A DNA stretch of 64,000 bases from a virus, in the IMG/VR virus record IMGVR_UViG_3300045988_111115, positions 14,419 to 78,418 of that record; one strand, 5' to 3'. A program made the translations under genes and the position numbers. Below, in pieces: positions 45,212 to 64,000 of the stretch (its first letter is position 1; each line of letters opens with the position of its first letter). A model generated the notes under the pieces. The model made no database searches, was not told the DNA's origin, and saw nothing but the letters and a program-made list of their open reading frames with translations.

Positions 45212-45216
45212 GCAAT

Positions 45217-45245
45217 TTGACAGATATATTAAAGTGTGTTATGAT
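45217..45245 (+). promoter_or_regulatory. promoter TTGACA-17-TATGAT with TGn extension
   Basis: Consensus -35 and an extended -10 (TGTTATGAT). Confidence 0.5.
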
Positions 45246-45294
45246 AATCATACAATTTGAAAAGATATGATTGTAGAAAGGAGTTGAAAGCCAA

Positions 45295-46576: not shown

Positions 46577-46577
46577 A

Positions 46578-46850: not shown

Positions 46851-46889
46851 GTACTTTGAATATAACTTAGACCACAAGGAGGTTAGCAG

Positions 46890-47366: not shown

Positions 47367-47387
47367 AGAATATGAGGTGAGTACATA

Positions 47388-48284: not shown

Positions 48285-48295
48285 GGTGCAAACTA

Positions 48296-48834
48296 TGCCA
48301 AACAAACTACCTAAAAAGCAGAAAATCAACCCACGTAAGATACAAGAGGACTATGCTTCACGCATAGAAAACTCATTACAGAAAGACGGAGTAGCCTTAT
48401 TTGATGAGAAGTACTTAGATATAAATGAGGAGTATTTAAGACTACCAAGAGGGATTACAGAAGTAACATCTAAAGAGTTGGGAGAGTACCTAAATGCTTT
48501 CACGCAACAAAAGATGTACCTAAGAACAGTTGCAGGACGTGTCCTATTGTATATCGAAGAGTGCAGACGTAAATACTATGAGGTAAGTGCTGAGAAGTAC
48601 AGACGTTTGTCAACGGATAAGATGTCAGAGACTGCAAAAGAGAGAATTATTTTAAGTTCCCCTGAGGTAAGACCCACTTACGAAGAGTATATGGACTTTA
48701 AGAATAAAGGAAAGATACTTGAAAATACAATCGCAAACATAGAAGATACAATCTTTTTGTTAAGTCGTGAAATATCACGAAGAACAGGAGATTTCGCAGA
48801 AGACAGACGAGAATATAATGTGTCAAGGAGGTAA
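48296..48834 (+). CDS. hypothetical protein
   Basis: The ORF track starts at 48190, overlapping the nuclease gene. ATG 48296 follows GAGGTG. Confidence 0.4.
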
Positions 48835-48840
48835 AATTAA

Positions 48841-50211
48841 ATGCCAATCTTTAATAGGGGTGCTAAAGGAGTAACACCTAAAATAGACACATCACCTATC
48901 ACTTTAGATGATGTTCAAAAAGAAGCAGTTGAAACAACTTTTCACAAAGTACTTGTAGTAGCAGGTGCAGGTTCAGGCAAAACAAGAGTACTTACTGAAC
49001 GTGTTAAGTACTTACTAAGCCAGGGTGTAAATCCTTGTAACATAATTGCTATCACTTTTACAAATATGGCGGCAGAGGAAATGAAAGAGCGTTTAAAGAC
49101 AGTAGAGGGTATAGGAGACACTTTCATAGGAACTATACATAGTTTTGCTAATAAAGTTATGAGTTTGTCAGGAGAGACCTATACTATATTTAATGACAGT
49201 GTAGACCTTGACTTTCATAAGGAACTCATTGAGAAGTACTGTAAATTCTTAACGCTAAAGAAGTACTTGAAGTACAGAGACTTAAGAGAAGCAGTAGAAC
49301 GAGGAGAACAAAGAGAAAGTACTTTAAACAACTTTTTAACACCAAGTGAAGTGGCAGAACTGCACTATATCGAAAGACCTGATGTAGATAGGTGTGCAGA
49401 CCCTAATATAATCAAGAACTACCCTGAAACAATAAAGACACTTTGTCTTGACAGAGGAGTGATTGACTTTAATCAGCTGTTAAAAAAGGCTACTGAGTAC
49501 TTTAACTCAATTAAGGCTTTTCCTGAACACGTACTTGTAGATGAGTTTCAGGATATAGATAGCCTTGAAGCAAAGTTTCTAAAGTCGCTAAAAGCACAGA
49601 ACTACTTTTATGTCGGAGACGATTATCAAGCTATCTATGGTTTTAAAGGTGGTAATGTATCTCTATTCCGTAATTTATATAAGTGCGCAGATTGGAAGAC
49701 GTACCACTTAAACTATAACTACCGTAACCCTCAATGTATTGTTGACTTAGGTTTTAAAGTAATGTCACAAGTAAAAGAGCGTATTCCGCACAACACAAGA
49801 GTAATGTCTAAAGAAGTGGGAAGTGTGAATATTATGTCACGTTACACAGGTAAGCCATTCCTTGCTGAAAGTCTTTTAAACCTAAGTGCAGAAGAGCGTA
49901 AAAGCACCTTTGTACTAACGAGAAGTAACAAGGAACTGTTTGAGCTAAAGAACTACCTTGATAATGTTGGAATACCTTGCAGTACTTTTAAGCGTGAGGG
50001 AATGTCCTTAGCTGATATAAATTATATTATGAGCCTGTCGACAGTAAAACTTATTACAGTGCATACATCAAAAGGGTTAGAAGCAGACAATGTACATTTG
50101 TGGGGTAACTTCCCTATCTCTGTACCATACTACTTGCTTGATGAGGAAGAACGCAGAGTAATGTATGTAGGAGTAACAAGAGCCAAGAAGAACTTAACAA
50201 TATATAATTAA
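48841..50211 (+). CDS. UvrD/PcrA-like SF1 helicase
   Basis: Walker [16 protein letters not shown], motif II LVDEFQD, motif VI VGVTRAK. Confidence 0.7.
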
Positions 50212-50224
50212 AAGGAGAATACAT

Positions 50225-50518
50225 ATGTTAGATAAAGAGACACCACAAATTGGAGAAGTATATAAACACTTTAAACGTGACCCTGAATTGCCTTGTACGG
50301 ATAATAGCTATTTATACATAGTAAAAGACCTTGCACAGCATACAGAGACCCACGAAGTACTTGTTATCTATCAGGCACTGTATTCACCATTTACAACCTA
50401 TGCAAGACCCTTAGAAATGTTTATGTCTATAGTTGATGAAGAAAAGTACCCTGAGCATAAGGGTGAAAGAAGATTTACACTATTAGGAGGAAACGTATAT
50501 GTGCCAAGAATTGAGTAA
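50225..50518 (+). CDS. DUF1653-like protein
   Basis: YKHFKRDP...[15 protein letters not shown] pattern. Confidence 0.4.
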
Positions 50519-51440
50519 AGAAATAAAAGACAGTGGAGACAGAACAGAGTTTGCTACAGGAGCAGTAAGAGACTTACACGAGGGTAAAGGTCGTTTTGAC
50601 CTTATCCCTCTTGATATAGTAAGTAGGATATTTAATAAAGAGTTTGAAAAGTACAACCCTGTAGCACTTGAAAAGGACTTAAAGCCTGATTATGTTTACA
50701 GGGCAGTAGACAACTTTAAGACTTCGGGTAATGTAACTACTCTTTATGTACTTGCTTACTGCTTTATAAAAAAACTTACAAGCGAGAATACTACACAAGG
50801 AAGTGCTATGTATAAAAGTACTTGGGAGTTTATGCTTGACCTTGCTATCCACTATGAAAACGGTGCTAAGAAGTATGGAGAGAATAATTGGCAGAAAGGA
50901 ATACCTGTACACTGTTGTATAGATAGTGCTTTAAGACACTATACAAAGTACAGAGCAGGTATGACTGATGAGCCACATCACGTTGCTTTTATATGGAACA
51001 TCATAACTGCCATATATGCTATGGAACAGAACAGAGAAGAACTTGACGATTATACTGTGGGCACTTCTAATACAGATGAAAGCTATACACAAGTATGGTC
51101 CAAGACTGCACCTGAAAGACTTATTCATTTAAGCTCAGCAGACGATTGGTATGATTATGCAAAGAATAGTGATGTACACGACTTTGAGAGGTTTATTGAC
51201 TATCTTAGACTATACACAGGTACATTAGACAACGCACTATACCTATACAAAAATGGAAAGCTAAGTGACCTGAAAAAAGATAACCCTCTCGATTACAAGT
51301 GGTTTGTTGATGATTGGTGTACAGGTTATGTAAGAGTTTTAATTGGTCTTATGTGTGCACAAGACTTTTTACAGTTGTCTACAGAAAGCATAAATGAGAG
51401 AGCCGAAAGAGGACTGAATGATAAAGCAAATCTATTTTAG
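50499..51440 (+). CDS. dATP/dGTP pyrophosphohydrolase-like protein
   Basis: FATGAVRD...GKGRFDLIP and [13 protein letters not shown] segments typical of the N-terminal domain of that family. Confidence 0.4.
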
Positions 51441-51457
51441 CCATAAGAGGTGGTAAT

Positions 51458-51997
51458 ATGAAGAAAGAGAAGTTCAGCATCATATCAAAAGAGTACTACT
51501 CTAACTGTCTTATAGAAGCGGTAAAAGCTAAGCTAAAAGACAGGAAAGTAAGTATAACCTTTGTATCACCTTTTGATAATGAGGAGTTCTGCCCTCATTT
51601 TCTTTGGTCTGACGGTGAGTATGATTATGACTTTGGTTGGGAGCATAGAAGAGTACCTTTATTCTTTGCTTGGACACTACATAGAGGTCATATTCGTAGA
51701 AGAGCTTTAGGTTATAATGAAAGATATAAAAACACTTGTAAGAGGTGGAAAAACAGGCACAAGAAGTTTGCTATGACCTATGAAGAGTTTGAAAAGTGGT
51801 ATAAAGATAGAATTACTGACGGTCACTTAGACTTGGTAACTTCAATCTACTGTTTGTTTATTACAGAGACTTTTGATAAAATACCTGAGAACGAACGAGA
51901 GAAAGTATGGCAAGAAGACTACCGTAGAAAAGTAGTACAAGGTATAGTACTTCCTCTTGATAATAGAGTACAAGCACTAACAGGTCGAAGAACATAG
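51458..51997 (+). CDS. hypothetical protein
   Basis: ORF with an RBS. Confidence 0.4.
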   Translation: MKKEKFSIISKEYYSNCLIEAVKAKLKDRKVSITFVSPFDNEEFCPHFLWSDGEYDYDFGWEHRRVPLFFAWTLHRGHIRRRALGYNERYKNTCKRWKNRHKKFAMTYEEFEKWYKDRITDGHLDLVTSIYCLFITETFDKIPENEREKVWQEDYRRKVVQGIVLPLDNRVQALTGRRT

Positions 51998-52072
51998 GTA
52001 TGGAGGTGATTAAGATGTGATACTATAAACTACTTGAAACACTATAGAATTTATTAAAAGGAGAAGAAAGCA

Positions 52073-53041
52073 ATGCAACTAATTTTAGAGCCAAAAGTAA
52101 AAGAGATTGAGTATGAGGGTCTTACCCCTCTAAGCCTTATTGAACGTGTAGGCAGAACTTGTTATAAGTCAACATCTGAGTATACAGAAGAGACCGCAAG
52201 AAAGTTTTTTAATATGCTTGCAAGTAAAGGTCATTATTCTATGTTTGAACACGCAAACCTTGTTTTTCAGCTTGATACAAGCTATTGGTTTGAAGATGTT
52301 ATAAACTGTACCGCATATGATACTGAACTTATTAATGCTTTGAGGTACTTTAATGTCACTCAATTCGGAGACAGAATACTTATCAGCGGAAGTATAAGAG
52401 CCTTTAATGAGTGTACTATTTACCCTATTCGTAATCTTCTTTGGAAATGCGAAAATGACGGTGAAGAGATATACCATTATGATACCACAGAGCACTTGAC
52501 AAGCCCTTGTCCCTACACAGGTAATTTGAGCGGTGTTAGATACATTAAAGACCTGAACACTCTATCAAAATTGACCTTAGATGAGGTTTTAGCACATACA
52601 TATATGACCCTTGATATTGAGTGTGACAGAGGTATTACTCACGAACTTGTAAGACACCGTAATTGTGCTTTTGCTCAGGAAAGTACAAGATACTGCAACT
52701 ATACAGCTGATAAGTTCGGAGATGATATTTACTTTATGCGACCACCTGAGATAGCTTTGAAAGACCTTAAAAAGTATGAAAAGATGAAGCAGGCATATGC
52801 AGACAGTGAAAAACTGTACAAAGAACTTGTTACAGGAGGACTTGCACCTGAATTTGCAAGAGGTATTTTACCTACCGCTTTGAAGTCGGAGATAGTCATT
52901 ACAGCTAATCTTAAAGAGTGGAAACACATCATTGATTTACGCTATAAGGAGACTACAGGAAAAGTACACCCTCACATTAAGCAAGTTGCTAAGAAAGCAA
53001 AGGAATTTTACGACAAAAAGCTACTTTCAGTAATTGGCTAA
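52073..53041 (+). CDS. thyX: flavin-dependent thymidylate synthase ThyX
   Basis: ThyX signature RHRx7S is present as ITHELVRHRNCAFAQES. Confidence 0.8.
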   Translation: MQLILEPKVKEIEYEGLTPLSLIERVGRTCYKSTSEYTEETARKFFNMLASKGHYSMFEHANLVFQLDTSYWFEDVINCTAYDTELINALRYFNVTQFGDRILISGSIRAFNECTIYPIRNLLWKCENDGEEIYHYDTTEHLTSPCPYTGNLSGVRYIKDLNTLSKLTLDEVLAHTYMTLDIECDRGITHELVRHRNCAFAQESTRYCNYTADKFGDDIYFMRPPEIALKDLKKYEKMKQAYADSEKLYKELVTGGLAPEFARGILPTALKSEIVITANLKEWKHIIDLRYKETTGKVHPHIKQVAKKAKEFYDKKLLSVIG

Positions 53042-53096
53042 TTTAAACACTAAAGAGGGTACAGTTATAAAACACTGTACCCTCTTAAATTACTAC

Positions 53097-53125
53097 TTGC
53101 AATTTAATACAATACGTGGTATAAT
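53097..53125 (+). promoter_or_regulatory. promoter TTGCAA-17-TATAAT with TGn extension, preceded by a hairpin at 53054-53083
   Basis: Consensus-like hexamers and an extended -10 TGGTATAAT. Confidence 0.5.
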
Positions 53126-53178
53126 GCACTTAAAATAAAGCCTTGTGTAAAGGTATAATATTGAAAGGAGTAGTAAAC

Positions 53179-53625
53179 GTGAAGTTTAAAGTAACACAAA
53201 AGGGTTTAGCTAATGCAGAGCAAGTACACGAGAGCAATGTTAAGAAAGGCAGAAGAAGTAAAGTCAAAGGTAGCAACTTTGAGAGAGACGTAGCCAAGAA
53301 GTTTAAATCGGTCTACAAAGAAGACTTAACACGTACACCACAAAGTGGTGGTTTCTCTAAGAAGTCTGAAAAGGCTGATGATTTCAGGGGTGATATTGTA
53401 TGTCTTAATCCTGATGTCGATATGCAGGTACACGTTGAGTGTAAAAATGCAAAGACTTGGAGCTTACCTAAGTGGCTTGAACAAGCTGAAAATGATTGTC
53501 CTAAAGGGAAAGTTCCTGTAGTAGTGTTCCATAAACACGGTACATCTAAAGACTACATAGCTTTATCCTTAGAGGACTTTTTTAGTTTAGTGCCTAAGGA
53601 AGCAATCTTCAAGGAGGTAAAGTAG
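53179..53625 (+). CDS. PD-(D/E)xK nuclease, Hjc-like (paralog of 46890-47366)
   Basis: GSNFERDV...GDIVCL...VECKN. GTG start after GAAAGGAG. Confidence 0.45.
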   Translation: MKFKVTQKGLANAEQVHESNVKKGRRSKVKGSNFERDVAKKFKSVYKEDLTRTPQSGGFSKKSEKADDFRGDIVCLNPDVDMQVHVECKNAKTWSLPKWLEQAENDCPKGKVPVVVFHKHGTSKDYIALSLEDFFSLVPKEAIFKEVK

Positions 53626-53626
53626 T

Positions 53627-53992
53627 ATGCACAGTGTATTGTTGTATAGCTTGATAATTGTTATTATTGTACTTATAATACTTTGTATAGTGTATCAGGT
53701 ACTTAGACCCATAGTGGTTTGCGGTGATAGTATGTTCCCAACTCTAAAAGAGAATGACATATTCTTTGCAGTAAGGGTAACTAAGCATACAGAGTTTAGA
53801 GTAGGAGAGATATACATATACCGTCCACCATATTCAAATGGTAGAAAGCACTATGTTATTAAGAGACTGACACGCATTGAACCCTACAGTAAAAAACTGT
53901 ACTTTGAGGGAGATAACAAAGATGTAAGCTTTGACAGTAGAGCATATGGCTATATATCTCGTGAGGACGTTAAGTTTCGTGTATTAGTTTAG
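53627..53992 (+). CDS. type I signal peptidase (S26 family)
   Basis: N-terminal TM helix, catalytic Ser box GDSMFPTL, Lys box VIKRL, and box E GDNKDVSFDSRAYG. Confidence 0.7.
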   Translation: MHSVLLYSLIIVIIVLIILCIVYQVLRPIVVCGDSMFPTLKENDIFFAVRVTKHTEFRVGEIYIYRPPYSNGRKHYVIKRLTRIEPYSKKLYFEGDNKDVSFDSRAYGYISREDVKFRVLV

Positions 53993-54009
53993 AAAGGAGT
54001 AGTAATTCA

Positions 54010-54294
54010 GTGAAAGAATTAAAGCAGATTAAAGTATCAGGTAGCACTTCGGTACATCAACTTGCAAGCAGTATTGTAAAGTTCATCAATGAGGGTTATG
54101 ATATTGAAGTAAGAGCCTTAGGTGCAAGTGCTGTAAACCAAATGTACAAAGGTGTAACCATTGCACGAGGTACTGTAGCACAGAAAGGTAAAGACCTTTT
54201 AATTAAACCAGGTTTTGCTGATGTTACCGAAACAGACAAAGACGGTAATGATAAGTCTAAGACAGTAATGGTTGCACATCTTGTCATTGGCTAA
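54010..54294 (+). CDS. spoVS: SpoVS-family protein (stage V sporulation protein S homolog)
   Basis: Recalled similarity to the SpoVS consensus along the full length: LKVS..S...LA..I...I.E....E..A.GA.A.NQ..K...IARG. Confidence 0.65.
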   Translation: MKELKQIKVSGSTSVHQLASSIVKFINEGYDIEVRALGASAVNQMYKGVTIARGTVAQKGKDLLIKPGFADVTETDKDGNDKSKTVMVAHLVIG

Positions 54295-54307
54295 GGAGGA
54301 CAGCAGA

Positions 54308-54697
54308 ATGAAGAACATCACAGTAACAAAGAGATTTACTTTTGAAGCAAGTCATAACCTTATTAAGTATGAGGGTAAGTGCTCTAACTTACACGGTCAT
54401 TCCTATAAGTTAGAGGTATCTTTTACAAGTGAGTCGAGATTGAATAGCCAAGGTATGGTGTTAGACTTTAATCTCATTGATGAGATAGTAAAACCTATAG
54501 TAGATAGGTACGACCACCACTATTTAAACGACTTCTTCTCTAACCCGACCGCAGAAGTTATGGCAGGAAGCATTTTTAATGAGATACAGTACATCTTAAG
54601 TGATAGGAATAACATTCCGAACTTTGAGGGTATTTACATTTCAGAAGTTAAGCTGTGGGAGACTGAGAAATGCTTTGTGTCCGTAAAGGGGGATTGA
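54308..54697 (+). CDS. queD: 6-carboxytetrahydropterin synthase QueD
   Basis: CxxxHGH motif (CSNLHGHSYKLEV). ATG 54308 follows GGAGGA. Confidence 0.75.
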   Translation: MKNITVTKRFTFEASHNLIKYEGKCSNLHGHSYKLEVSFTSESRLNSQGMVLDFNLIDEIVKPIVDRYDHHYLNDFFSNPTAEVMAGSIFNEIQYILSDRNNIPNFEGIYISEVKLWETEKCFVSVKGD

Positions 54698-54699
54698 AA

Positions 54700-54837
54700 A
54701 TGCAAGGACTAAGATACCACAAACAAGCTAAATGTAAGTACTGCAAAAAGCCGATTATGCTAAGCAGAGCATTAAACCTAAGTGAGCAGAAAAACTATGT
54801 CTGTCCTGACTGTCGTAGAGAGGGGGTACGTAGTTAA
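54700..54837 (+). CDS. 45-aa zinc-ribbon protein
   Basis: CKYC...CPDC, RBS AAGGGGGA, and an end abutting the queE start. Absent from the ORF track. Confidence 0.4.
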   Translation: MQGLRYHKQAKCKYCKKPIMLSRALNLSEQKNYVCPDCRREGVRS

Positions 54838-55488
54838 ATGCTATACTATGATGAGGTGTTCCAAAGTATTCAAGGTGAGAGTACTTCCGCAGGTCTACCT
54901 TGTGTATTTGTAAGACTGTTTGGTTGTAATGTAGGTTGTTCCTATTGCGACCAACCACAAAAGAAAGAGCAGAAAAAGCGTATAAGCGTTGACAAACTCA
55001 TAAATAAAATACTAAGCTACCATATACCAAGGGTATGTATTACAGGAGGAGAGCCTTTATTGCAACAGGAAATATATCCTGTAGTATATGACCTTGTTAA
55101 AAGGGGTTATGATGTATCTATTGAGACAAGCGGTTGTGTTCCGATTGATAACGACGGTTATGTCAGAAAACATAAATACATTATGGACGTTAAGTGCCCA
55201 AGTAGCAAAGTATCACATAAGAATATTTTTGATAACCTTGCTAAACTGCATTTAATAGATGAGGTTAAGTACGTTATTAAGGATAGAGCTGACTATGATT
55301 TTGCAAGGGACATTATGAGAAAGTACCCTACAAATGCAAAGGTACTTTTCAGTCCTGTAATGGAACTTGATGAAAATGGTACTTGGAAATGTGCCGTTTC
55401 TAAAGACCTTGTTAAGTGGGTATTAGAAGACGGGCTAACCAATGTACGTATTCAAGTACAACTACATAAATTTTTGGAGGTGCAGTAA
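54838..55488 (+). CDS. queE: 7-carboxy-7-deazaguanine synthase QueE (radical SAM)
   Basis: CNVGCSYCD cluster and GGEPLL. Confidence 0.75.
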   Translation: MLYYDEVFQSIQGESTSAGLPCVFVRLFGCNVGCSYCDQPQKKEQKKRISVDKLINKILSYHIPRVCITGGEPLLQQEIYPVVYDLVKRGYDVSIETSGCVPIDNDGYVRKHKYIMDVKCPSSKVSHKNIFDNLAKLHLIDEVKYVIKDRADYDFARDIMRKYPTNAKVLFSPVMELDENGTWKCAVSKDLVKWVLEDGLTNVRIQVQLHKFLEVQ

Positions 55489-55919
55489 TGTTAGACAGAG
55501 AGCCTATAAAAGACTTTAGAGATGAACAGGAACTAAATAGCTGTTTAGAAGAGTGGCAGAGAATACTCTACCTTGATGATTGGGTTATTCAAGCACGTCT
55601 CATAGACCGCCCCTCTTTGGAAGAGATGAGTGGTGAAAATCTACAAGGAAGAAATGAATTTAACATCATAAATAAGTCCTCTGTAATTTATGTAATAAAA
55701 GCAGATGATTATGCTAACTCTACTGTGCGGAAATACTGTGCAGAGAAAGTACTTGTACACGAACTATTGCACTGTAAGTATAATTGGCTAAGTCCTCCCA
55801 ATACCTTAGAGGGTAGGTACTTTGATACCCTTGAACATCAGCTTTTAGAAGATATGGCAAAGTCTTTAATACTTGCCCGATACAATATAACTAAAGATTG
55901 GTTTAGGAATATTGGGTAG
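55488..55919 (+). CDS. hypothetical protein with HExxH motif
   Basis: VLVHELLHC. Confidence 0.35.
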   Translation: MLDREPIKDFRDEQELNSCLEEWQRILYLDDWVIQARLIDRPSLEEMSGENLQGRNEFNIINKSSVIYVIKADDYANSTVRKYCAEKVLVHELLHCKYNWLSPPNTLEGRYFDTLEHQLLEDMAKSLILARYNITKDWFRNIG

Positions 55920-56190
55920 ACAAGTCTATCACTGCGGAGAATTTAAAATCTACAGAGCAGGTAAAGGGTACATAGTACATAATACAAACAAGCCTTTTAA
56001 GAGAGGTCATACTCATATAAATGACTTCTCTACAGCAAAGTATATAATACATCTTAGCAGACATAAGTTGATACCTAAGCACTTATCTATTTACCTTTGG
56101 GTGAGCCTTGAAAGAATAAGTGTTAATAAGGAATACTGCAAGAAGCTAAGATGTATCATAGAAGATAAAACTATAAATAACCAATTTTAA
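55912..56190 (+). CDS. hypothetical protein
   Basis: ORF within the modification cluster. Confidence 0.35.
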   Translation: MGRQVYHCGEFKIYRAGKGYIVHNTNKPFKRGHTHINDFSTAKYIIHLSRHKLIPKHLSIYLWVSLERISVNKEYCKKLRCIIEDKTINNQF

Positions 56191-56203
56191 GGAGGAAAAC
56201 AAA

Positions 56204-56482
56204 ATGGCAAACAAAAACGAACTAATTGAACGTGTATCAAAAGAAATGGGTGTTTCACTTACTCAAGCAAAGACAGCAGTAAACGCAGTACTTCAAGGTA
56301 TTGGTGATACAGTTATTGAAAATGGCAGACTTCAACTTGTTGGTTTCGGCACTTTTGAGGTAAGAGACAGAGCTGAAAGAAAGGGTAAAAACCCTCAGAC
56401 AGGTAAAGAAATGACTATCCCTGCAACAAAGGTATTTGCTTTTAAAGCAGGTAAGACATTGAAAGATAAGCTAAACGCTTAA
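56204..56482 (+). CDS. hup: HU-family histone-like DNA-binding protein
   Basis: Full-length HU signature (NKNELIERVS...GFGTFEVRDRAERKGKNPQTGKEM...FKAGK). Confidence 0.85.
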   Translation: MANKNELIERVSKEMGVSLTQAKTAVNAVLQGIGDTVIENGRLQLVGFGTFEVRDRAERKGKNPQTGKEMTIPATKVFAFKAGKTLKDKLNA

Positions 56483-56502
56483 GCCGAATAAAGCAGAGAA
56501 AA

Positions 56503-56533
56503 CAGGGTTAGTATTTAATGCTGACCCTTTTTC
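56503..56533 (+). terminator. weak rho-independent terminator after hup
   Basis: AGGGT...ACCCT 5-bp stem followed by TTTTTC. Confidence 0.35.
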
Positions 56534-56556
56534 TATACACTGAAAGGAGAATATAA

Positions 56557-58251
56557 ATGGATAATGATAAAGTAGTAGCATTATGTAGTGGAGGTTTTGA
56601 TAGTATAGTACTACTCCACGACTTACGACATAACAACCCTGACTTAGAAATACATACACTGTTCTTTGATTACGGTCAGAGAAATAAGGTAGCAGAGCAA
56701 AGGTGTGCCGAAAAGGCTTCAAGAAAGCTAAAGTGTACACTACACATAGTAAAGATACCACCAATATCTTGGACTAACAGTAACTTCTATGGTGAAGACT
56801 TTAAAGACGCACCTACACAGTACTTAGAGTATCGCAATTTAATCTTTTTCTCTTATGCCCTGTCATTAGCACAGAGTTATGGAGCAACAGGAATTTATGC
56901 CGCCATACTGAAATCACATTGGGGATATGCTGATACCTCTAAAGAGTTTATAAGTGCTTTAAATACACTGTCTGAGCTACAAGGTATTTCAATATTTACA
57001 CCTTATGCAGATGTAGATAAGAATGCACTCGGTCCTTTAGCATTTGAGTATGGTGTATATGTAGGCGATTGGTTTTCTTGCGACACACCAAAGGTAGATG
57101 AACAAGGCTTACTTGTACCTTGTGGTGAGTGCCCTGATTGTGTAACTCTAAAGAGGTTTGAATATCAGTTGAGTAAATCGCCTGTACGTGAAGCCTTTGT
57201 AAATGGGAAAGTAGACACAACTACACAGAAGTTTCAGGAGAGCTTAAGAGAGTACCCTATAAGAGAATTAAGGGTACTGACTAATAACTCTTGTCAACTT
57301 AAATGCCCCCATTGCTTCTATGGCTTTGATAAGATGAAAGGAGACCCTTTAACATATGATGAGATGTATTGGGTAATAAAGCAAGCTATTAATGACATAG
57401 GTGTTAAGAGTTTGCACTATGCAGGTAAAGAGCCTTTGTTCAATAGAGATATTTGGAGATACATAGAGAGGGTACGACAGGAATACCCTAACATAGAACA
57501 GAGTATTGTTACTAATGGTATAAACGTCACAAGAGACCTTGACTTGATTGTTAAGAACAAGGTAGAACTCTTTCTAAGTATAGATAGTAGCATTTTAAAA
57601 TCTACTGAGGAGCATATCAGAGATATAGTAGTAACACAAGACCTATTGAATGTCCTAAGAAATAAGGGAGTACCTGTAACAGTCTTTATAGACTTACACG
57701 AGGGTACTTATGATAAGGTATATGAACTAATAGACACTCTGAGAAAGAATTGCGGAGTAAGTAATTTTCATATACGTACTCTAAGACCCATAGGAAATGC
57801 TAAAAAGAATAACATAATGCTAAGTGAGGATAAAGTGATGTACGCTTTAGTACAGGCTTATACCTACTGCAAGTGCTATCCTAATGAGGACTTTAAGATA
57901 ACTGTAGATGTAGGCTTAGACTACTCAACAAAGTTGCTACAGGTAGATAATGAGATTACTCGACTAAGCAAAGAGAATTTTGTAAAAGGTTATTTGAATA
58001 TAGCTAAAAACTTCTCTATCTCTTGGGAGTTATTCTGTAATAAATATGTACATACACTTACTGTATCTCCTGACGGATATATTTTTGGTTGTGGTATGGA
58101 ACTTGCTAATGCAGATTATGATAAAATTTCTGTAGGAAATGCTCGTGAGTACACCTTAAAGACACTGCTTGCTATAGGTAAAGAGAAGAGCGTTAGTATC
58201 AATAAGGACATCTGTAAGGGTGATTGTATCACTTGCAAATTTAATAAGTAA
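56557..58251 (+). CDS. queC: QueC (7-cyano-7-deazaguanine synthase) fused to a radical-SAM/SPASM-like domain
   Basis: PP-loop LCSGGFDS and QueC zinc site SCDTP...CGECPDC in aa 1-210. Then CQLKCPHCFY (CxxxCxxC), AGKEPLF, and a C-terminal Cys cluster CG...CKGDCITC. Confidence 0.7.
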   Translation: MDNDKVVALCSGGFDSIVLLHDLRHNNPDLEIHTLFFDYGQRNKVAEQRCAEKASRKLKCTLHIVKIPPISWTNSNFYGEDFKDAPTQYLEYRNLIFFSYALSLAQSYGATGIYAAILKSHWGYADTSKEFISALNTLSELQGISIFTPYADVDKNALGPLAFEYGVYVGDWFSCDTPKVDEQGLLVPCGECPDCVTLKRFEYQLSKSPVREAFVNGKVDTTTQKFQESLREYPIRELRVLTNNSCQLKCPHCFYGFDKMKGDPLTYDEMYWVIKQAINDIGVKSLHYAGKEPLFNRDIWRYIERVRQEYPNIEQSIVTNGINVTRDLDLIVKNKVELFLSIDSSILKSTEEHIRDIVVTQDLLNVLRNKGVPVTVFIDLHEGTYDKVYELIDTLRKNCGVSNFHIRTLRPIGNAKKNNIMLSEDKVMYALVQAYTYCKCYPNEDFKITVDVGLDYSTKLLQVDNEITRLSKENFVKGYLNIAKNFSISWELFCNKYVHTLTVSPDGYIFGCGMELANADYDKISVGNAREYTLKTLLAIGKEKSVSINKDICKGDCITCKFNK

Positions 58252-58264
58252 CCCTCTTGACAAG

Positions 58265-58293
58265 TATTCAAAGGTATGGTAGTATTTAGACAT
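58265..58293 (+). promoter_or_regulatory. promoter TTGACA-17-TAGTAT with TGn extension
   Basis: Consensus -35 and an extended -10. It is followed by a ~95 nt leader. Confidence 0.45.
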
Positions 58294-58385
58294 AGACATA
58301 AGTAGGTGCTGAGGTTTCATATTTCCCTCACACTGTGTATAAGTCCTTATGCCTTAAAATATGTTGTGAAAGGAGGGTGTTTATT

Positions 58386-58568
58386 ATGCTATTCTTGAAA
58401 GTATATGCAGAAAGTGGCGACAGTAACGGCAACGGAAACCGTAGAGGCTTTGACAGAGACGACGGTGGTGTAGGTGGTCTTCAACCTACTACACGTGCAG
58501 GTGCAAGAGCTGTAGGCAATCGTATTACTCGCGGTGGCGGTGGTAGAACTGGCAGAACTGGCAGATAA
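58386..58568 (+). CDS. 60-aa Gly/Arg-rich micro-protein
   Basis: Strong RBS GAAAGGAGGGTG, its own promoter and terminator, a local GC island, and the sequence ...GGGGRTGRTGR. Confidence 0.5.
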   Translation: MLFLKVYAESGDSNGNGNRRGFDRDDGGVGGLQPTTRAGARAVGNRITRGGGGRTGRTGR

Positions 58569-58589
58569 GTAGGATAATACCCTGCGTGA

Positions 58590-58627
58590 CCCCAAAGGGA
58601 GTTTATTCCTTTTGGGGTTTTATTTTT
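58590..58627 (+). terminator. rho-independent terminator
   Basis: CCCCAAAGGG...CCTTTTGGGG followed by TTTTATTTTT. Confidence 0.65.
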
Positions 58628-58644
58628 AGAAAGGAGAATTTAAT

Positions 58645-58872
58645 ATGAGTAAGAAAATCACAACACCTGCAACAGTAGGCAAATTTAACCCAAATGGTAT
58701 TGAAGTAGACCCACAGTCTACACCTGTAGATGCTTATACAGCTACTGCTAAACCTTTTTCAGGGGATAACAAAGCTACAGTAGGCAAACTTCCACAGAAG
58801 TATTCTAAAGGTCTTTTGAACATTGACCCTCAGGTTACTATGCCTTGTTGCTACACAAAGACAGTAAATTAA
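58645..58872 (+). CDS. small protein with repeated ATVGK motif and C-terminal CC
   Basis: Strong RBS, and PATVGKFNP plus KATVGKLPQKY plus MPCCYTK. Confidence 0.45.
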   Translation: MSKKITTPATVGKFNPNGIEVDPQSTPVDAYTATAKPFSGDNKATVGKLPQKYSKGLLNIDPQVTMPCCYTKTVN

Positions 58873-58882
58873 GGAGGATAAA

Positions 58883-59102
58883 TATGAAGATAGAAGATTA
58901 TGATTGGAGAACAATAGAAGATGGTAATACACTTGTAAGGGCGGCAGAGATACAAGGTGACCCTGAACGTCTTGCAATGGCACAAGCATACCTAAATGCA
59001 CAGCAGTCGGCTACAAGAGTAGCTTTAGGTAAGAAGCCTACGGGTTCCGCACCGTCACGCAGAAATAAAGCTACTATCGGTAGTCTACCACAAAACTTTT
59101 AA
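58883..59102 (+). CDS. small protein ending KATIGSLPQNF
   Basis: RBS AAGGAGGA, and a C-terminal motif shared with the preceding gene. Confidence 0.45.
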
Positions 59103-59111
59103 TTACAAGGG

Positions 59112-59672
59112 GTGCAAGAGATGATTAATAATAAAGTTGAAGAGATAAAGAAACACGTTGAAGCTATTGCGGATATACTCGGTATTGAGAAAACAGAGAG
59201 TAACGAAAATACCCCATTAAGAGTGGCTAAGATGTACTGTAATGAACTATTTGTCAACAGGAATAATGATAATATTGAGGAATTAAATTCTCGTATGAAA
59301 GTATTTTCTGCTGACGGTAATTCATCACCTGTTAAGATGGACAATATACCTTTTAACTCTGTTTGTGAACATCATTGGCTACCATTCTTCGGAACAGTGT
59401 CAGTACACTATGAGCCACAAGATAAGATAATAGGTCTTTCTAAAATTCCGAGAGTGGTTAAGTACTTTTCAAAGAAGCCACAGCTACAAGAGAGGTTGAC
59501 ACAAGAGATAGGGGAATATCTTGTATCGGTATTAAAACCTAAGTCTCTGACCGTAACAATAACTGCTACACATACTTGTGTTATGTGCAGAGGTATTGAA
59601 AGTCCTTGTGATACCACTACGGAGTTTAAATACAATGCTTCGAGAGGGGAGATTAATAGTGAAACTACCTAA
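59112..59672 (+). CDS. folE: GTP cyclohydrolase I FolE
   Basis: CEHH zinc motif, SKIPR, and an overall FolE layout. Confidence 0.75.
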   Translation: MQEMINNKVEEIKKHVEAIADILGIEKTESNENTPLRVAKMYCNELFVNRNNDNIEELNSRMKVFSADGNSSPVKMDNIPFNSVCEHHWLPFFGTVSVHYEPQDKIIGLSKIPRVVKYFSKKPQLQERLTQEIGEYLVSVLKPKSLTVTITATHTCVMCRGIESPCDTTTEFKYNASRGEINSETT

Positions 59673-61689
59673 AAAGGTTACACCCATCTTCAAAAAAGCA
59701 GAGGTAGTAGAGAAACCTAAGTATACCGACCTAAGACAAGTAATGGACTATACACGTCCTCTTAATATTTTCTTTTCGGGTGTTGAGTATGAAAGTTACC
59801 TTGAAATACTTTATAACTTGGGTATTCGTAATTTTCTTATGTCTTATGAGTATTTAAGAGGTAAAGGTATTTCTCAGCTTAAAAAGTACCCTGATATGCA
59901 CTTGTTCATAGATAGTGGTGCTTTTACGTACATCAATGACCCAAAGTATGAGGAGTACACTGTTGAGCAGTGGGAAAACCAAATAGAGAAGTACTTGAAT
60001 TGGGCTGAAAAACACAAAGACCAAATATTTGCTATTGCAGACCTTGACCTACAGTATGTAGTAGGGTGTGAGCAAGTTTATGAGTGGAGAAAGAAGTACT
60101 TTGAGCCGTTTATGCTAAGAACAGGAATACCTGTTTGCTTTATGTATCACGACGAGGGTATGTCTCAATGGGAGTATATGTGTAAGCGTTATCCTTATGT
60201 CGGACTTTCTCTTGTAGTTGATAATGGAAATGATGTTAAAGAGATGTTCCGTATAGCTGAAAAGCATAATACACTTATACAAGGTATGGCTTCTACTAAT
60301 ACTCAGATGTTGGTTAATTACCCTTTCTACACAGTAGATAGTACTACTTGGAATGTTGGATTGAAATATGGTGAAATATCTGTTTGGAATGGCTCTAAAA
60401 TGTCTCGTATCAAGAAGCAAGACTTTCAGTCTAAAGGTTTTCCCATTATACAAAGGTACGACAGAGACTTTGATTTTGACCTTATCTTAGAAGAGGATAA
60501 GACAGAAATGATAAAGGTAAATGCCTATGCGTTTGTTATGGCAGAGAAGTACATAAGGGAGCGTTTAAAGTCAAAAATGTATTGGTTTAAAGCTAAGGCA
60601 CAGAAAGTTGACTTGAATAATCTACCTGAGGACTTCTACCCTACCCAAGAGATGATTAATGACAGGACACTTACACTACCTCAGGCTCAAGAGTATGCTA
60701 AGAAGATGAACATTAACCCTGAATATGAGGGAGTACTGAACTTAGTATGTGATTTGACTACTTTTATGAATTGGGATAACCCCGATTATGCAGAACTTGT
60801 AGAGTGGTACAAAGACCCTGAGCAAGAAAAACTTATACAGGAACTTCACGACATCTATGTAAACCGTATAGTAGAAAGTAAAGAGGATATGTATTCCGAC
60901 CTTACTAAATTCTTTACTGAATGTGTTTCAGGTGAGAATGACAAGTTACTACAGTTAGGTACTAACTTTGACCGAATAGTCAAGGAGAGAGAACACTACA
61001 TAGAAGAGGAAGAGACCGAAGTAGTGGAACTTACAGAAGCACAAGTAAGAGATAGAATTTCTTACTTGCTACCTACCCCTGCTGATGAGGTAGACGAAGT
61101 AGCACTTGCTAAAGTAGACAAGGAGATATACAGCCACCTTGACATAAAACCACAGTTTGATGAGAAAGGTAAATTTCTTAAAGGACAGACTATCGCACGA
61201 AAGCCTAAAAAGGTGTATTCAGATAAGTACCCTAAATTGGCTTGTGATACTTGTTTAAATGCGGCGAAGTGTCCTGAGTACAAAGCAGGTTATGTATGTG
61301 CTTTTAACAAGATGTTTAAGCGTTTTGATACCCGAAATATGACAGATATAATGGAGGGTATGCAGAGTATAGTTGGTTACAATATGGAACGTATGCAAAG
61401 GGCAATGATAAATGAAACACTTAATGGTGTTATTGACCCGACCACTACTTCTTTAATGGACCAAAATATACGTTATATGAATATGCTAAAGCAGATGTAC
61501 GAGAACAGCAGTGCTGAGGTACTAAGACAGTCAAGAGTAATTCGCAATGATGGTACACTTGAAGAGACCACACAAGTAGTTAATCCTCAAAGTGGTGGTA
61601 TACTTGAAAAGATATTTGGTGGAATGAATGAGCCACCTAAGAAAAAGACTGAGGAAGAGAAGATTATCATTGAAGAGAATAAAGAATAA
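59635..61689 (+). CDS. dpdA: DpdA-like 7-deazaguanine DNA transglycosylase (TGT fold) with long C-terminal extension
   Basis: FIDSGAFTY resembles the TGT catalytic DSGGFQ motif. It also has a C-terminal Cys cluster CDTC...C...C and sits among folE and queCDE. The start is either ATG 59635 or GTG 59659. Confidence 0.5.
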   Translation: MLREGRLIVKLPKKVTPIFKKAEVVEKPKYTDLRQVMDYTRPLNIFFSGVEYESYLEILYNLGIRNFLMSYEYLRGKGISQLKKYPDMHLFIDSGAFTYINDPKYEEYTVEQWENQIEKYLNWAEKHKDQIFAIADLDLQYVVGCEQVYEWRKKYFEPFMLRTGIPVCFMYHDEGMSQWEYMCKRYPYVGLSLVVDNGNDVKEMFRIAEKHNTLIQGMASTNTQMLVNYPFYTVDSTTWNVGLKYGEISVWNGSKMSRIKKQDFQSKGFPIIQRYDRDFDFDLILEEDKTEMIKVNAYAFVMAEKYIRERLKSKMYWFKAKAQKVDLNNLPEDFYPTQEMINDRTLTLPQAQEYAKKMNINPEYEGVLNLVCDLTTFMNWDNPDYAELVEWYKDPEQEKLIQELHDIYVNRIVESKEDMYSDLTKFFTECVSGENDKLLQLGTNFDRIVKEREHYIEEEETEVVELTEAQVRDRISYLLPTPADEVDEVALAKVDKEIYSHLDIKPQFDEKGKFLKGQTIARKPKKVYSDKYPKLACDTCLNAAKCPEYKAGYVCAFNKMFKRFDTRNMTDIMEGMQSIVGYNMERMQRAMINETLNGVIDPTTTSLMDQNIRYMNMLKQMYENSSAEVLRQSRVIRNDGTLEETTQVVNPQSGGILEKIFGGMNEPPKKKTEEEKIIIEENKE

Positions 61690-61694
61690 AATGA

Positions 61695-61730
61695 AGTCCT
61701 ATGGAGTGTTTCTGTAGGACTTTTACTTTT
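61695..61730 (+). terminator. rho-independent terminator
   Basis: AGTCCTA-N13-TAGGACT followed by TTTTACTTTT. Confidence 0.6.
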
Positions 61731-61764
61731 GTCTGTTTATATGCTATAATGTAGTCAAATATAA

Positions 61765-62442
61765 ATGAAAGGAGTACTTAAAATGCAAGTACTAAATAAA
61801 TATCAATTAAATAAGCACCTCAGACGAGCAGAATTAGCCCTAAAACAAGGGTTAAGTGTTTTGTCAAGTAAATTGTCATATGGCACACTAAAAGTCCTTA
61901 AAAGCCTAAATTTGCTCCAAATAGAAGATAAGAGGTATACTAACATACTACAACGTAAGTTCTGTAACTTGGGTGTATACAGACTTACACCAAGGGGTAA
62001 ATTCAATGTAAGCTACGTAGTAGAGCCTATACAGCAGACTGACTTTCAAAGATATAAACTATTTGGAGTATTTAAGTGGGAGAGTATGCCACAGTATACT
62101 TACAGTAACAAAATAAGAGTAAGAGCAGAACTTATAGAGTTTCACTATGTGGACGACGTCTCTAAGGAAGTATCTATTGTATCTACTGCACATAATCGAG
62201 TTACCAGATGTAGTATGTCAATAGTAAAAGACAAAGGGTCAGATATACCTATGTACACCCTACAGTATGGCAAAGTTACTACTTGTAACTTTAGTAAGTG
62301 CCGTTATGGTCTTAATTTTATTATCCCCGAAAGAGAAGACACTAATGGTACTGCACTAAGTGTAATTGACAGAGTAATAATTAAAAGGCTAAGTTCAGAA
62401 ATGCCAACAGATGTAGAGATACAGGAGCAACTCATATCTTAG
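61765..62442 (+). CDS. hypothetical protein
   Basis: ORF with RBS AAAGGAG. Confidence 0.4.
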   Translation: MKGVLKMQVLNKYQLNKHLRRAELALKQGLSVLSSKLSYGTLKVLKSLNLLQIEDKRYTNILQRKFCNLGVYRLTPRGKFNVSYVVEPIQQTDFQRYKLFGVFKWESMPQYTYSNKIRVRAELIEFHYVDDVSKEVSIVSTAHNRVTRCSMSIVKDKGSDIPMYTLQYGKVTTCNFSKCRYGLNFIIPEREDTNGTALSVIDRVIIKRLSSEMPTDVEIQEQLIS

Positions 62443-62573
62443 GGGAAATTTGAACTAATTTAATAACTGTAGTATAATAAGTTTAAGTGCAGAGTTTGAA
62501 GTCAAGGTCACCTTGACTAATAAACCTTTAGGTTTATTTTAATACATAACTCTTATATAATATATTTAATATA

Positions 62574-62617
62574 GCTTGCATAATTCAAGATTACGCACGA
62601 GTATTAAGAAAGGAGTG
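62574..62617 (+). promoter_or_regulatory. second copy of the operator/promoter element (see 34088-34140)
   Basis: GCATAATTCAAGATTACGCAC-GAGTATTAAGAAAGGAG. Confidence 0.5.
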
Positions 62618-62636
62618 GTTAAAATGCAATGGATAC

Positions 62637-62963
62637 TTGCAGAAAAAAAAGTTACCTGAAAATAAGAGACCAGTACTTACAACAGTTGTATTCCCTGATG
62701 GTTATAGCTATGTAGGTGTCTCCTACTACGATAAAGATTTGGAATGTTGGAGAGACTATGTGACCGACTTTAATGAACCGAATAGAGTAGTAGCTTGGCA
62801 AGAGTTACCTAAACCCTATGCAGTAAGTACTAAAAAGGCAGTAGCTGAACTTGAAAATCAAGTACAGGAACAGCAGTCAAAGCGTTTAGCAGAGGACAGC
62901 AAGGTAATTCAAATGCTGACAGAGATTAGCGACAAATTAACAGCAATGGAGGAAGAGAAATGA
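62637..62963 (+). CDS. hypothetical protein; start compromised by A8 tract (ATG 62624 is out of frame)
   Basis: The RBS-proximal ATG at 62624 reads only 11 codons. The long ORF lies in the other frame and would be restored by loss of one A from the A8 run at 62643-62650. Confidence 0.4.
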   Translation: MQKKKLPENKRPVLTTVVFPDGYSYVGVSYYDKDLECWRDYVTDFNEPNRVVAWQELPKPYAVSTKKAVAELENQVQEQQSKRLAEDSKVIQMLTEISDKLTAMEEEK

Positions 62964-63028
62964 AGATACAAAGGTAGAAGTGGTTATAGCTGAGTAAGAG
63001 AATAAAGCTTAAGGAGTTGAAGTAAAGT

Positions 63029-63505
63029 ATGTTAGTTCCTGCAATCTTACATAAAGAGCAGATTATAAGGGAGTTTCAAAAGCAGTTTTATACAGAAGAT
63101 ATGTTCCTTGAAACAGGAAATTTCTATCAATGGTGTCCCAAAATATCCGAAAACCCTGATGAGGGACAGTTTGAGTATGCTATAGTAAAAGACTATAGAG
63201 TAGTTGGTTATATATCTTACAGTGTAGACTATTACTGTTCAAAGGTGTACAACTTTGGACTTGTGTCTTTTGATAAAGGTAATTACACAGTTGGTAAAGA
63301 CGTATTTAATAAGATAGAAGAACTTGTTGGAATGTACCACAGAGTTGAGTGGAGAATGATTAGAGGTAATCCTGCTGAAAGAAGCTATGATAAATTCTGC
63401 AAAAAGCATAATGGTAAGAAACATATCTTAAAAGACGCAGTAAGAGATAAATATGGTAATTATCGTGATGATGTTATTTATGAGATAGTACAGAGTACTG
63501 TATAA
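63029..63505 (+). CDS. GNAT-like acetyltransferase (tentative)
   Basis: 158 aa ORF with an RVEWRMIRGNPAERSYDKF segment. Confidence 0.3.
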   Translation: MLVPAILHKEQIIREFQKQFYTEDMFLETGNFYQWCPKISENPDEGQFEYAIVKDYRVVGYISYSVDYYCSKVYNFGLVSFDKGNYTVGKDVFNKIEELVGMYHRVEWRMIRGNPAERSYDKFCKKHNGKKHILKDAVRDKYGNYRDDVIYEIVQSTV

Positions 63506-63946
63506 AATCGGGAGTATAAAAATTGAGGTAATAGGTTGACAAGATATAACACATAAGTTATAATACATAATGTAAGGGTACAGTCCTTATAGTAATTAAG
63601 TGAATAGGTAAGTAGTAATACAAGTAAGTTATTTGTTTTATCCGTTTTGAAAGAGGTATCAACACTACTTAAGCACTTAAATACTGTATAGGTACTGTAC
63701 CCTTATTTTATATTTTTGCATAAAATTTAAAGAAATTGCGGAGAATTATATATTTTATAGCCTTTAAGAAAAAGGCAGAAAATATAGTGCATATATAAGA
63801 AGCAAAATTTCGGGAAAGTGCGGAGAAAGTATAAAAAAGTTTAAAAAGAATAATAAGGGTGTAGTATAAAGAAGTATATAAAGTAATAGCATAATAGAAT
63901 ATAAATATAACACTTGTAAACACCTTATGTCTATCTCTCTATGCCT

Positions 63947-64000
63947 CTTTACTCTTCCCTACTCCCTACTCCCTACTCCCTACTCCCTACTCCCTACTCC
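63947..64000. repeat. tandem heptamer (CTACTCC)n of at least 7 copies, running off the window edge
   Basis: Direct read. On the minus strand it is (GGGAGTA)n. Confidence 0.9.

Follow-up and report, generated by a model that had tools for sequence, protein, structure and literature searches.

A QueC-radical SAM fusion in the 7-deazaguanine cassette of uncultured phages and its candidate role in tailoring a DNA base

Modification of DNA with 7-deazaguanines is a major route by which phages evade restriction. A minimal FolE/QueD/QueE/QueC/DpdA gene set yields dPreQ0, which carries 7-cyano-7-deazaguanine (preQ0), in DNA (PMC6884629). In phage 9g and in archaea, QueC is joined to another catalytic domain, an N-terminal class II glutamine amidotransferase (GATase), and in the phage FolE/QueD/QueE/DpdA cassette this Gat-QueC partner decides which base the DNA ends up with, dG+ rather than dPreQ0 (PMC6884629, PMC10516641). 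Here we describe a gene from a 64,000-nucleotide stretch of viral DNA (positions 14,419 to 78,418 of IMG/VR record IMGVR_UViG_3300045988_111115; the whole stretch is called the window below) that likewise joins QueC to a second catalytic domain inside such a cassette. The partner differs, being a C-terminal radical S-adenosylmethionine (SAM) domain of the twitch type; no GATase domain was found in the protein with Pfam, NCBIfam or PHROGs. The initial annotation of this DNA had named the amidotransferase fusions as the known phage QueC fusions, in agreement with the literature, and had not recognized a QueC fused to radical SAM. None is described in the literature we searched, which included the 2019 and 2023 phage deazaguanine surveys and a survey from July 2026 that spans the entire QueC family.

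Other described systems share single features with this locus. The ArcS-RaSEA system of Euryarchaeota also couples a radical SAM enzyme to a 7-deazaguanine-processing enzyme downstream of preQ0 (PMC11298593), but there the partner is ArcS, a paralogue of tRNA-guanine transglycosylase, and the substrate is preQ0-Lys in tRNA, whereas in this locus QueC takes the place of ArcS, the setting is DNA modification, and no ArcS-like partner is among the annotated genes. Cap9 of CBASS type IV (antiphage signaling based on cyclic oligonucleotides) and QatC of Qat defence modify the N terminus of a partner protein in host defence, unlike a QueC placed in a phage preQ0 and DpdA cassette. The closest cultured-phage QueC (gp025, 37%) and DpdA-like protein (gp021, 40%, annotated "queuine tRNA-ribosyltransferase") are those of Bacillus phage BCD7. 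The genes of that phage follow the order seen here (S26 peptidase, SpoVS, QueD, QueE, QueC, small basic open reading frames [ORFs], FolE, DpdA), but QueC stands alone there, at 215 aa, and BCD7 has neither a radical SAM domain on it nor a free radical SAM gene of the type called rSAM2 below. Because the BCD7 cassette is syntenic and has a standalone QueC, the radical SAM domain is an addition to a standard cassette. In the literature on BCD7 we found no report of DNA modification and no link to deazaguanine. A radical SAM protein of the MoaA/NifB/PqqE family in Vibrio phage phi-pp2 was rejected as a known analogue, as it lies outside the QueC/QueF/FolE region.

Architecture and recurrence of the fusion protein

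Profile hidden Markov model searches, which the initial annotation had suggested for each half, placed both halves above their Pfam cut-offs. QueC (PF06508) matched residues 5 to 197 (E = 3.6e-27, 95.7 bits versus a cut-off of 22), and Radical_SAM (PF04055) matched residues 243 to 393 (E = 4.6e-14, 53.4 bits versus 29.5); SPASM (PF13186) gave a weak match on residues 494 to 545, at 15 bits versus 21.5. In PHROGs the protein matched the "QueC-like" family phrog_1550 (E = 2e-31) and the "radical SAM domain-containing protein" family phrog_1802 (E = 7e-13). The motifs picked out at first reading are in place, with SGGFDS (residues 11 to 16) and the zinc cysteines of a complete QueC in the N-terminal half and CQLKCPHC and AGKEPLF in the C-terminal half. 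An AlphaFold2 model built with an alignment of homologues had a mean predicted local distance difference test score (pLDDT) of 91.4 and a predicted template modelling score (pTM) of 0.85, and the linker between the domains scored 72 to 93. Judged from its sequence, the protein is an SGGxDS-type QueC joined to a radical SAM domain in a genuine fusion.

The architecture recurs widely, as had been asked of it. A homologue search that covered 5.8 billion proteins returned 122 matches, more than 110 of which are 545 to 580 aa long, share 30 to 57% identity across 93% or more of the query, and have both PF06508 and PF04055. Several relatives also carry a precomputed PF13186 match, and a 99% identical 564-aa protein was found on two other contigs. 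Alignments of 83 to 119 members showed that the PP-loop, the four zinc cysteines, C246/C250/C253, G290/E292/P293, T319-N320-G321, S341/D343 and C494/G507/G511/C512 are invariant or nearly so, far more conservation than chance would give. Within the PP-loop, S11, G12, G13, D15 and S16 are invariant and F14 is kept in at least 90% of 83 homologues. K291 is conserved in at least 90% of members, C560 in 89% and C557 in 63%, and the CX3CX2C motif is intact in 118 of the 121 proteins tallied. Both halves are under purifying selection, with omega (dN/dS, unsaturated pairs) of 0.17 to 0.21 for the QueC half and 0.10 to 0.15 for the radical SAM half. The worry that an assembly or sequencing error had merged two adjoining genes can be put aside as extremely improbable, because the homologues are numerous and diverged, the near-identical copy lies on further contigs, the linker is conserved and structured, the model is confident, and selection acts on both halves.

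One public copy has gone unremarked: UniProt A0A8S5QS09, from "Myoviridae sp. ctgXL3," is named "7-cyano-7-deazaguanine synthase" only. The fusion is also found on IMG/VR loci and on contigs of metagenome-assembled genomes (MAGs) binned to Clostridia, Eubacteriales and Thermosipho. The phages that bear it are all uncultured and come mostly from gut and other anaerobic samples. When the whole protein and its radical SAM half were compared by tblastn with 50,697 phage records, there was no full-length match and only weak generic radical SAM matches, which rules out the fusion in cultured phages among those records; megablast of the cluster gave no match. A Mogibacterium MAG contig with two QueC-like matches was uninformative, as its ORFs are fragmentary.

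The QueC domain aligns end to end with Bacillus subtilis QueC. Its zinc motif is C175-x13-C189-xx-C192-xx-C195, compared with the canonical C(x)8CxxCxxC; the first spacer, 13 here, is variable in the family. The refined QueC signature consists of YxQxHxxE, VPxRN, YPDC and K165, with Y35, R99, Y131 and Y189 essential (Escherichia coli numbering; PMC13329287). The domain keeps SGGxDS, Y39, Q41, R93, N94, Y124, D126, K155 and the four zinc cysteines and deviates by N43 in place of His, LE in place of VP, YADT in place of YPDC, and D176 at the position equivalent to Y189. The standalone QueCs of BCD7 and of a related phage locus, L010, carry identical deviations, and therefore these are a trait of the lineage and not an effect of the fusion. 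Sequence comparison puts the N-terminal half nearer to QueC (E = 2e-22) than to Cap9 (E = 9e-13). By its motifs, the domain is a QueC-type PP-loop ATP pyrophosphatase whose ATP loop and zinc site are intact.

The nearest solved relative of the radical SAM half by sequence is MoaA, the GTP 3',8-cyclase (E = 2.6e-16), followed by SkfB, CteB, BlsE, Tes, PqqE and the viperins. The nearest folds are SPASM/twitch enzymes such as SuiB, anSME, SkfB, MoaA, viperin and BlsE. All NCBIfam radical SAM families scored far below their cut-offs, the best being MoaA, a tungsten-cofactor maturase and NirJ2; MoaA models reached 40 to 43 bits versus cut-offs of 231 to 325. Such scores (for example, 43 versus 284 to 325 bits for MoaA) set the domain apart from MoaA and from SkfB, SuiB, anSME, PqqE, BlsE and viperin. 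The partial TIM-barrel fold of the radical SAM superfamily is present, the cluster motif reads C246-QLK-C250-PH-C253, and the TNG and SxD motifs align with those of MoaA. The conserved R239 aligns with MoaA R17, and the C494/C512 hairpin aligns with the MoaA hairpin C261...DGKFYGC278. MoaA C264 and the GTP-binding R266 and R268 are not conserved in the fusion family, and the CX2CX13C motif of MoaA is absent.

The tail after C512 holds one to six cysteines in patterns that vary across the family, with at least one in all true fusions. The initial annotation had proposed a SPASM-like cysteine cluster at the C terminus. The cysteines are there (C494, C512, C553, C557 and C560), but they do not make up the full seven-cysteine SPASM motif with its two auxiliary clusters (CX9-15GX4C...CX2CX5CX3C...C), of which the first half is invariant and the second half is not conserved. 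The arrangement instead has the hairpin cysteine pair and one or two downstream cysteines of the abridged SPASM, or twitch, seen in BtrN, MoaA and SkfB. On these motifs the C-terminal domain is a SPASM/twitch-class radical SAM enzyme with one predicted auxiliary iron-sulfur site. The domain is acidic (median pI 5.2). Unlike in peptide maturases, no recognition element for RiPPs, peptides that are made on the ribosome and modified after translation (RiPP recognition element [RRE]), and no other leader-binding domain was found in it; QueC takes up the N terminus, and free copies, of about 290 aa, have no additional domain. The acidity and the lack of an RRE point to a small-molecule substrate.

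A radical SAM clade tied to the cassette

The fusion lies in a 7-deazaguanine cluster, as first annotated, with QueD, QueE, FolE and DpdA-like genes identified around it (Table 1). We surveyed 36 related loci, all with the core cassette. QueD and QueE lie 1 to 2 kb upstream of the fusion, a linkage kept in 34 of the 36, and a DpdA-like gene is present in 34 of the 36. Cassette gene order is kept around homologues that are only 31 to 42% identical. A local QueC-profile search of positions 44001 to 64000 found no second QueC, and among the window genes that could be annotated there is no QueF, Gat, ArcS, methyltransferase or formyltransferase.

The radical SAM domain also occurs as a separate protein. 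In locus L006, whose QueC domain is 66% identical to that of the window, the appended domain lacks the cysteine triad, and a separate 301-aa radical SAM gene, rSAM2, lies between FolE and DpdA. Free rSAM2 is 24% identical to the C-terminal half of the window protein (E = 2e-13) and shares CX3CX2C, GKEPL, TNG, the twitch cysteine pair and the terminal cysteine, these three cysteines being exactly C242/C260/C296. An exhaustive rSAM2 profile search of 1.84 billion representatives, checked with Pfam, ranked about 27 free forms first, then the QueC fusions, and then generic radical SAM proteins. Locus L071 has a QueC fused to an rSAM2-type domain, and L009 has the fusion and rSAM2 together. Free rSAM2 was in the order FolE-rSAM2-DpdA in four of four independent contexts found (L006, L009, L010 and L070) and sometimes overlaps FolE or DpdA. 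Fused or free, the clade lies inside the FolE/QueD/QueE/QueC/DpdA cluster in every context examined, and by sequence similarity the two forms make up one small cassette-tied clade.

The module comes and goes. About 19 of the 36 loci have an active fusion, 9 have a standalone QueC with no radical SAM gene within 10 kb, 3 have a dead fused domain (P0107, P0120 and P0115, in L006, L024 and L025, respectively), and 4 have QueC joined to an unrelated domain of about 245 aa. The dead variants keep the domain and have lost CX3CX2C, and P0115 additionally lacks the GxEP motif. These states interleave by DpdA similarity across the loci, which suggests repeated gain, fission, inactivation and loss. This pattern, together with the existence of sister phages that lack the radical SAM domain or carry it inactivated, indicates from sequence comparison that the module is accessory. 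Such gains, splits, inactivations and losses also supply natural controls. We considered whether free rSAM2 always compensates for a dead fused domain; this holds for L006 and fails for L025, and the L024 contig ends too early.

The four loci with the unrelated domain (L045 to L048) represent a sister group of phages, to which the protein BFVD A0A8S5LXK5 also belongs. Their C-terminal domain of about 245 aa is unannotated, and hhalign showed no radical SAM homology in it, so that these 445-aa QueC variants were rejected as degenerate radical SAM fusions. Because this group is fused to a different domain at the same end, the C terminus of QueC is a recurrent fusion point in the lineage.

In some loci the slot between FolE and DpdA, which free rSAM2 takes in other phages, is filled by an FMN_red protein (PF03358) of 178 to 193 aa. 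A CxxCxxCx(4-7)C motif near its N terminus leads us to call it iron-sulfur-flavoprotein-like. Of 21 loci with an active radical SAM form, 8 have the gene, compared with none of the 15 others (P = 0.011 by a naive Fisher test that ignores phylogenetic non-independence; about six independent lineages contribute). The window has no such gene. To work, a radical SAM enzyme would require a dedicated electron donor.

Candidate roles of the radical SAM domain

We favour, at a probability of roughly 60%, a bifunctional protein that serves as the QueC of a FolE/QueD/QueE/QueC/DpdA pathway to a phage DNA 7-deazaguanine. The QueC domain would make a 7-deazaguanine, the fused twitch-type radical SAM domain would tailor the QueC product, and the DpdA-like enzyme would install the base in phage DNA. 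With ATP and ammonia, the QueC domain would convert 7-carboxy-7-deazaguanine (CDG) to 7-amido-7-deazaguanine (ADG) and then to preQ0, or possibly stop at ADG, and the radical SAM domain would then bind the resulting 7-deazaguanine. Reductive cleavage of SAM would draw on host flavodoxin for electrons or, in some relatives, on a phage iron-sulfur flavoprotein, and the 5'-deoxyadenosyl radical would tailor the base either on its C7 substituent or at C8. The fusion, its split forms and the exclusive tie to these cassettes are shown by the sequences, and what the radical step acts on, where it attacks and what it makes are inferred. In the fused protein, the product of QueC would be channelled to the radical domain. 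The DpdA-like transglycosylase would then swap the product for guanine in phage DNA, which would be shielded from host nucleases or glycosylases.

In favour of this reading we count the intact architecture, its recurrence, its place as the sole QueC found in the cassette, the synteny with BCD7, the tie between clade and cassette, purifying selection, the co-occurrence of the FMN_red gene, and the acidic radical SAM domain with no RRE. There is also a precedent, in that swapping QueC for Gat-QueC changes the DNA base from dPreQ0 to dG+ (PMC6884629). Eight DNA 7-deazaguanines are described (dPreQ0, dADG, dG+, dPreQ1, mdPreQ1, fdPreQ1, dDG and dCDG), all covered by a known set of QueC, Gat-QueC, QueF, ArcS and DpdL/M/N; a radical SAM enzyme, tied to QueC through a Rosetta-stone fusion, would be a ninth type of tailoring module. 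It is likely that the system produces a 7-deazaguanine DNA base, or takes a route to one, not described before, and on our favoured reading we hold a base outside the eight to be more likely than not. More tentatively, and with the odds somewhat against it, the clade, fused or free beside DpdA, may make a phage DNA 7-deazaguanine outside these eight, such as a preQ0 modified at C8 or on its side chain by radical addition, and this base may occur widely among the uncultured myoviruses of Clostridia and of other anaerobes. A new base would widen natural DNA chemistry. The enzyme would be the first of the radical SAM type to tailor a 7-deazaguanine of DNA, its reaction on a deazapurine would be new to radical SAM chemistry, and it would give a handle for DNA that resists restriction or glycosylases. 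A known base made by a new route would be a further non-homologous replacement in the pathway. The question can be tested directly in E. coli with the two-plasmid assay that has served for Gat-QueC, DpdM and ArcS.

Several observations weigh against our favoured reading. A preQ0 base has no sp3 C-H bond, and therefore canonical hydrogen abstraction on the free base is not obvious. The Tyr equivalent to Y189, which is essential in E. coli QueC (PMC13329287), is missing, and the domain misses the TIGR00364 equivalog cut-off in NCBIfam (79.1 versus 150.3 bits). This score may reflect the divergence of phage proteins, but for both of these reasons the product of the QueC domain could be ADG or another compound rather than preQ0. 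On the radical SAM side, several of the top fold matches are peptide maturases, and the nearest folds are generic and assign no chemistry. Locus L025, seen in six samples, is viable with a dead fused domain and has no free rSAM2 in the usual slot, where FolE is followed directly by DpdA. No DpdA substitution tracks the presence of the radical SAM domain in a low-power comparison, which gives no sign that a different base is inserted; the candidate differences were only conservative, imperfect L/V, M/I and R/K exchanges. This last point is tempered by the promiscuity of DpdA2 enzymes. Finally, the evidence on all members of the family and on BCD7 is computational.

Two of these points would be accommodated if tailoring took place on DNA. 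QueC would then make preQ0, DpdA would insert it, and the radical SAM domain would modify dPreQ0 in place, for example by abstracting a deoxyribose hydrogen or by adding to the base, much as ArcS/RaSEA act on preQ0 in tRNA and DpdC acts on dPreQ0 in bacterial DNA. DNA has the sp3 C-H bonds that the free base lacks, the DpdA pocket has no substitution that follows the radical SAM domain, phages with and without it interleave by DpdA similarity, and free rSAM2 lies directly 5' of DpdA. For Gat-QueC, whether conversion comes before or after insertion is likewise undecided (PMC6884629). The acidic domain has no recognizable DNA-binding module, though, the DpdA comparison is of low power, and fusion to a small-molecule enzyme, QueC, suggests consecutive small-molecule steps. 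We consider modification at the DNA level unlikely, while it is the alternative that holds up best.

A RaSEA-like route to the archaeosine base (G+) is less likely still. An amine adduct of preQ0, or of the adenylated QueC intermediate, would be fragmented to the formamidine, the protein would be an analogue of Gat-QueC, and the DNA would carry the known dG+. RaSEA, itself a radical SAM enzyme, forms G+ from preQ0-Lys and does so in complex with an enzyme that modifies preQ0 (PMC11298593). Formation of G+ already has several non-homologous solutions, one of them a QueC fusion, and an amine adduct is conceivable since Cap9 and QatC, of the QueC family, ligate CDG to amines. Against this route, neither the annotated window genes nor the gene families of the related loci include an ArcS-like or other lysine-transfer partner, and no RaSEA model was among the best 25 of 34 NCBIfam matches of the radical SAM half. 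RaSEA belongs to a different radical SAM subgroup. The findings do not point specifically to RaSEA-type chemistry.

We think it very unlikely that the protein modifies a peptide or protein. In that case the QueC-like domain would ligate a deazaguanine or activate a carboxylate, as in Cap9/QatC and the RiPP nitrile synthetases, and the SPASM/twitch domain would be a RiPP-type maturase acting perhaps on a small downstream protein. The lack of an RRE or leader-binding domain, the small size of free rSAM2 and the closer similarity to QueC than to Cap9 all argue against this, as does the position of the fusion in the QueC slot of a complete preQ0 and DpdA cassette where no other QueC was found. The small ORFs downstream were rejected as radical SAM-specific substrates because the basic family among them is also present in BCD7, which has no radical SAM domain; the other families are patchy.

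There is little to recommend a non-catalytic appendage, in which the radical SAM domain is structural, for example in docking to DpdA, or is a decaying remnant of a gene that acts as QueC only: the three dead variants do keep the domain, L025 has no free copy in the usual slot, and sister phages manage without it, but the cluster and SAM-binding motifs are intact in the window protein and in nearly all homologues, omega for this half is no higher than for the QueC half, and the flavoprotein gene co-occurs only with active forms.

Neighbouring genes

Upstream of the fusion, in order, are genes for a protein with a MazZ-like dATP/dGTP diphosphohydrolase domain, ThyX, a PDDEXK nuclease, an S26 peptidase, SpoVS, QueD, a small zinc-ribbon ORF, QueE, two ORFs without annotation, and HU. 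Downstream, three small ORFs are followed by FolE and the DpdA-like transglycosylase. The positions of these and of the related-locus features are collected in Table 1.

Table 1. Features of the fusion locus in the window and of related loci (locus numbering where a locus is named)
Feature	Position	Strand	Details
QueC-radical SAM fusion gene	56557..58251	+	Uninterrupted ORF, 564 aa plus stop, ATG start
Ribosome-binding-site-like aaaggag	56543-56549	+	5' of the ATG of the fusion gene
Terminator-like hairpin and T-run	56504..56538	+	Between the HU gene and the fusion ribosome-binding site; consensus match only
QueC domain, residues 5-197	56569..57147	+	PP-loop SGGFDS 56587-56604; Zn site C175/C189/C192/C195 57079-57141
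Inter-domain linker, residues 198-232	57148..57252	+	Structured, two helices; F226 in at least 90% of members
Radical SAM core, residues ~233-493	57253..58035	+	CX3CX2C (C246/C250/C253) at 57292-57315; G290-K-E-P; T319-N-G; S341-x-D343
Twitch or half-SPASM auxiliary-cluster region, residues 494-564	58036..58248	+	C494-x12-G507-x4-C512; tail Cys C553/C557/C560
QueD (6-carboxytetrahydropterin [CPH4] synthase)	54272..54697	+	PF01242, E = 8e-33; phrog_2389
QueE (CDG synthase, separate radical SAM enzyme)	54838..55488	+	phrog_2076, QueE-like, E = 3e-37; PF04055
FolE (GTP cyclohydrolase I)	59112..59672	+	PF01227, E = 8e-47
DpdA-like guanine transglycosylase	59578..61689	+	phrog_887, E = 1e-65
MazZ-like domain protein	50499-51440		313 aa; N-terminal PF18909, E = 2.7e-15
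S26 signal-peptidase-like gene and SpoVS homologue	53627-54294		Directly 5' of QueD
Small ORF between QueD and QueE	54670-54837		55 aa; two CxxC pairs (CKYCKK...CPDCRR)
Basic Gly/Arg-rich family, window	58257-58619		ORF 58386-58568
Basic Gly/Arg-rich family, other loci	BCD7 gp023/gp024 (L008 5220-5697); L001 11816-12082; L010 7840-7992, 9102-9434		
FMN_red genes	L005 13276-13821; L012 6160-6711; L013 12952-13485; L014 12720-13283; L028 13016-13594; L032 13308-13862; L034 12489-13022; L035 12482-13015		Loci with an active QueC-radical SAM fusion only
Dead fusion variants	L006 10001-11410 (P0107); L024 10001-11551 (P0120); L025 10001-11614 (P0115)		
QueC with unrelated C-terminal domain	L045 4021-5361; L046 9995-11332; L047; L048		

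The DpdA-like ORF is listed from a GTG, but translation probably begins at an ATG, either 59635 or 59743. The protein is unusually long, about 650 to 700 aa here and 757 aa in BCD7. Its residues ~552 to 631 match phrog_6902 (terminase small subunit; E = 1.3e-7) and may be a DNA-binding module.

The MazZ-like protein adjoins ThyX and is also present in L006 and L010. A dGTP-hydrolysing enzyme in a guanine-replacing phage could bear on the extent of guanine replacement or on a pre-replicative step. The S26 and SpoVS pair is present in 33 to 34 of the 36 loci, BCD7 included, and is thus conserved as well as the deazaguanine genes are. The 55-aa ORF between QueD and QueE overlaps the end of QueD, and L006 has a 47-aa ORF with a faint zinc-ribbon match in the same position.

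Short, very basic proteins rich in Gly and Arg form a family with the common N terminus MLFLxVYA(E/Q/T), and one member always lies directly after QueC, with or without a radical SAM domain. The ORF in the window has a strong promoter-like site of its own (TTGACA-17-TAGTAT with TG) and a terminator. The leader of the family resembles a capsid-targeting sequence or a propeptide cut after Glu, and these may be packaged DNA-binding internal proteins.

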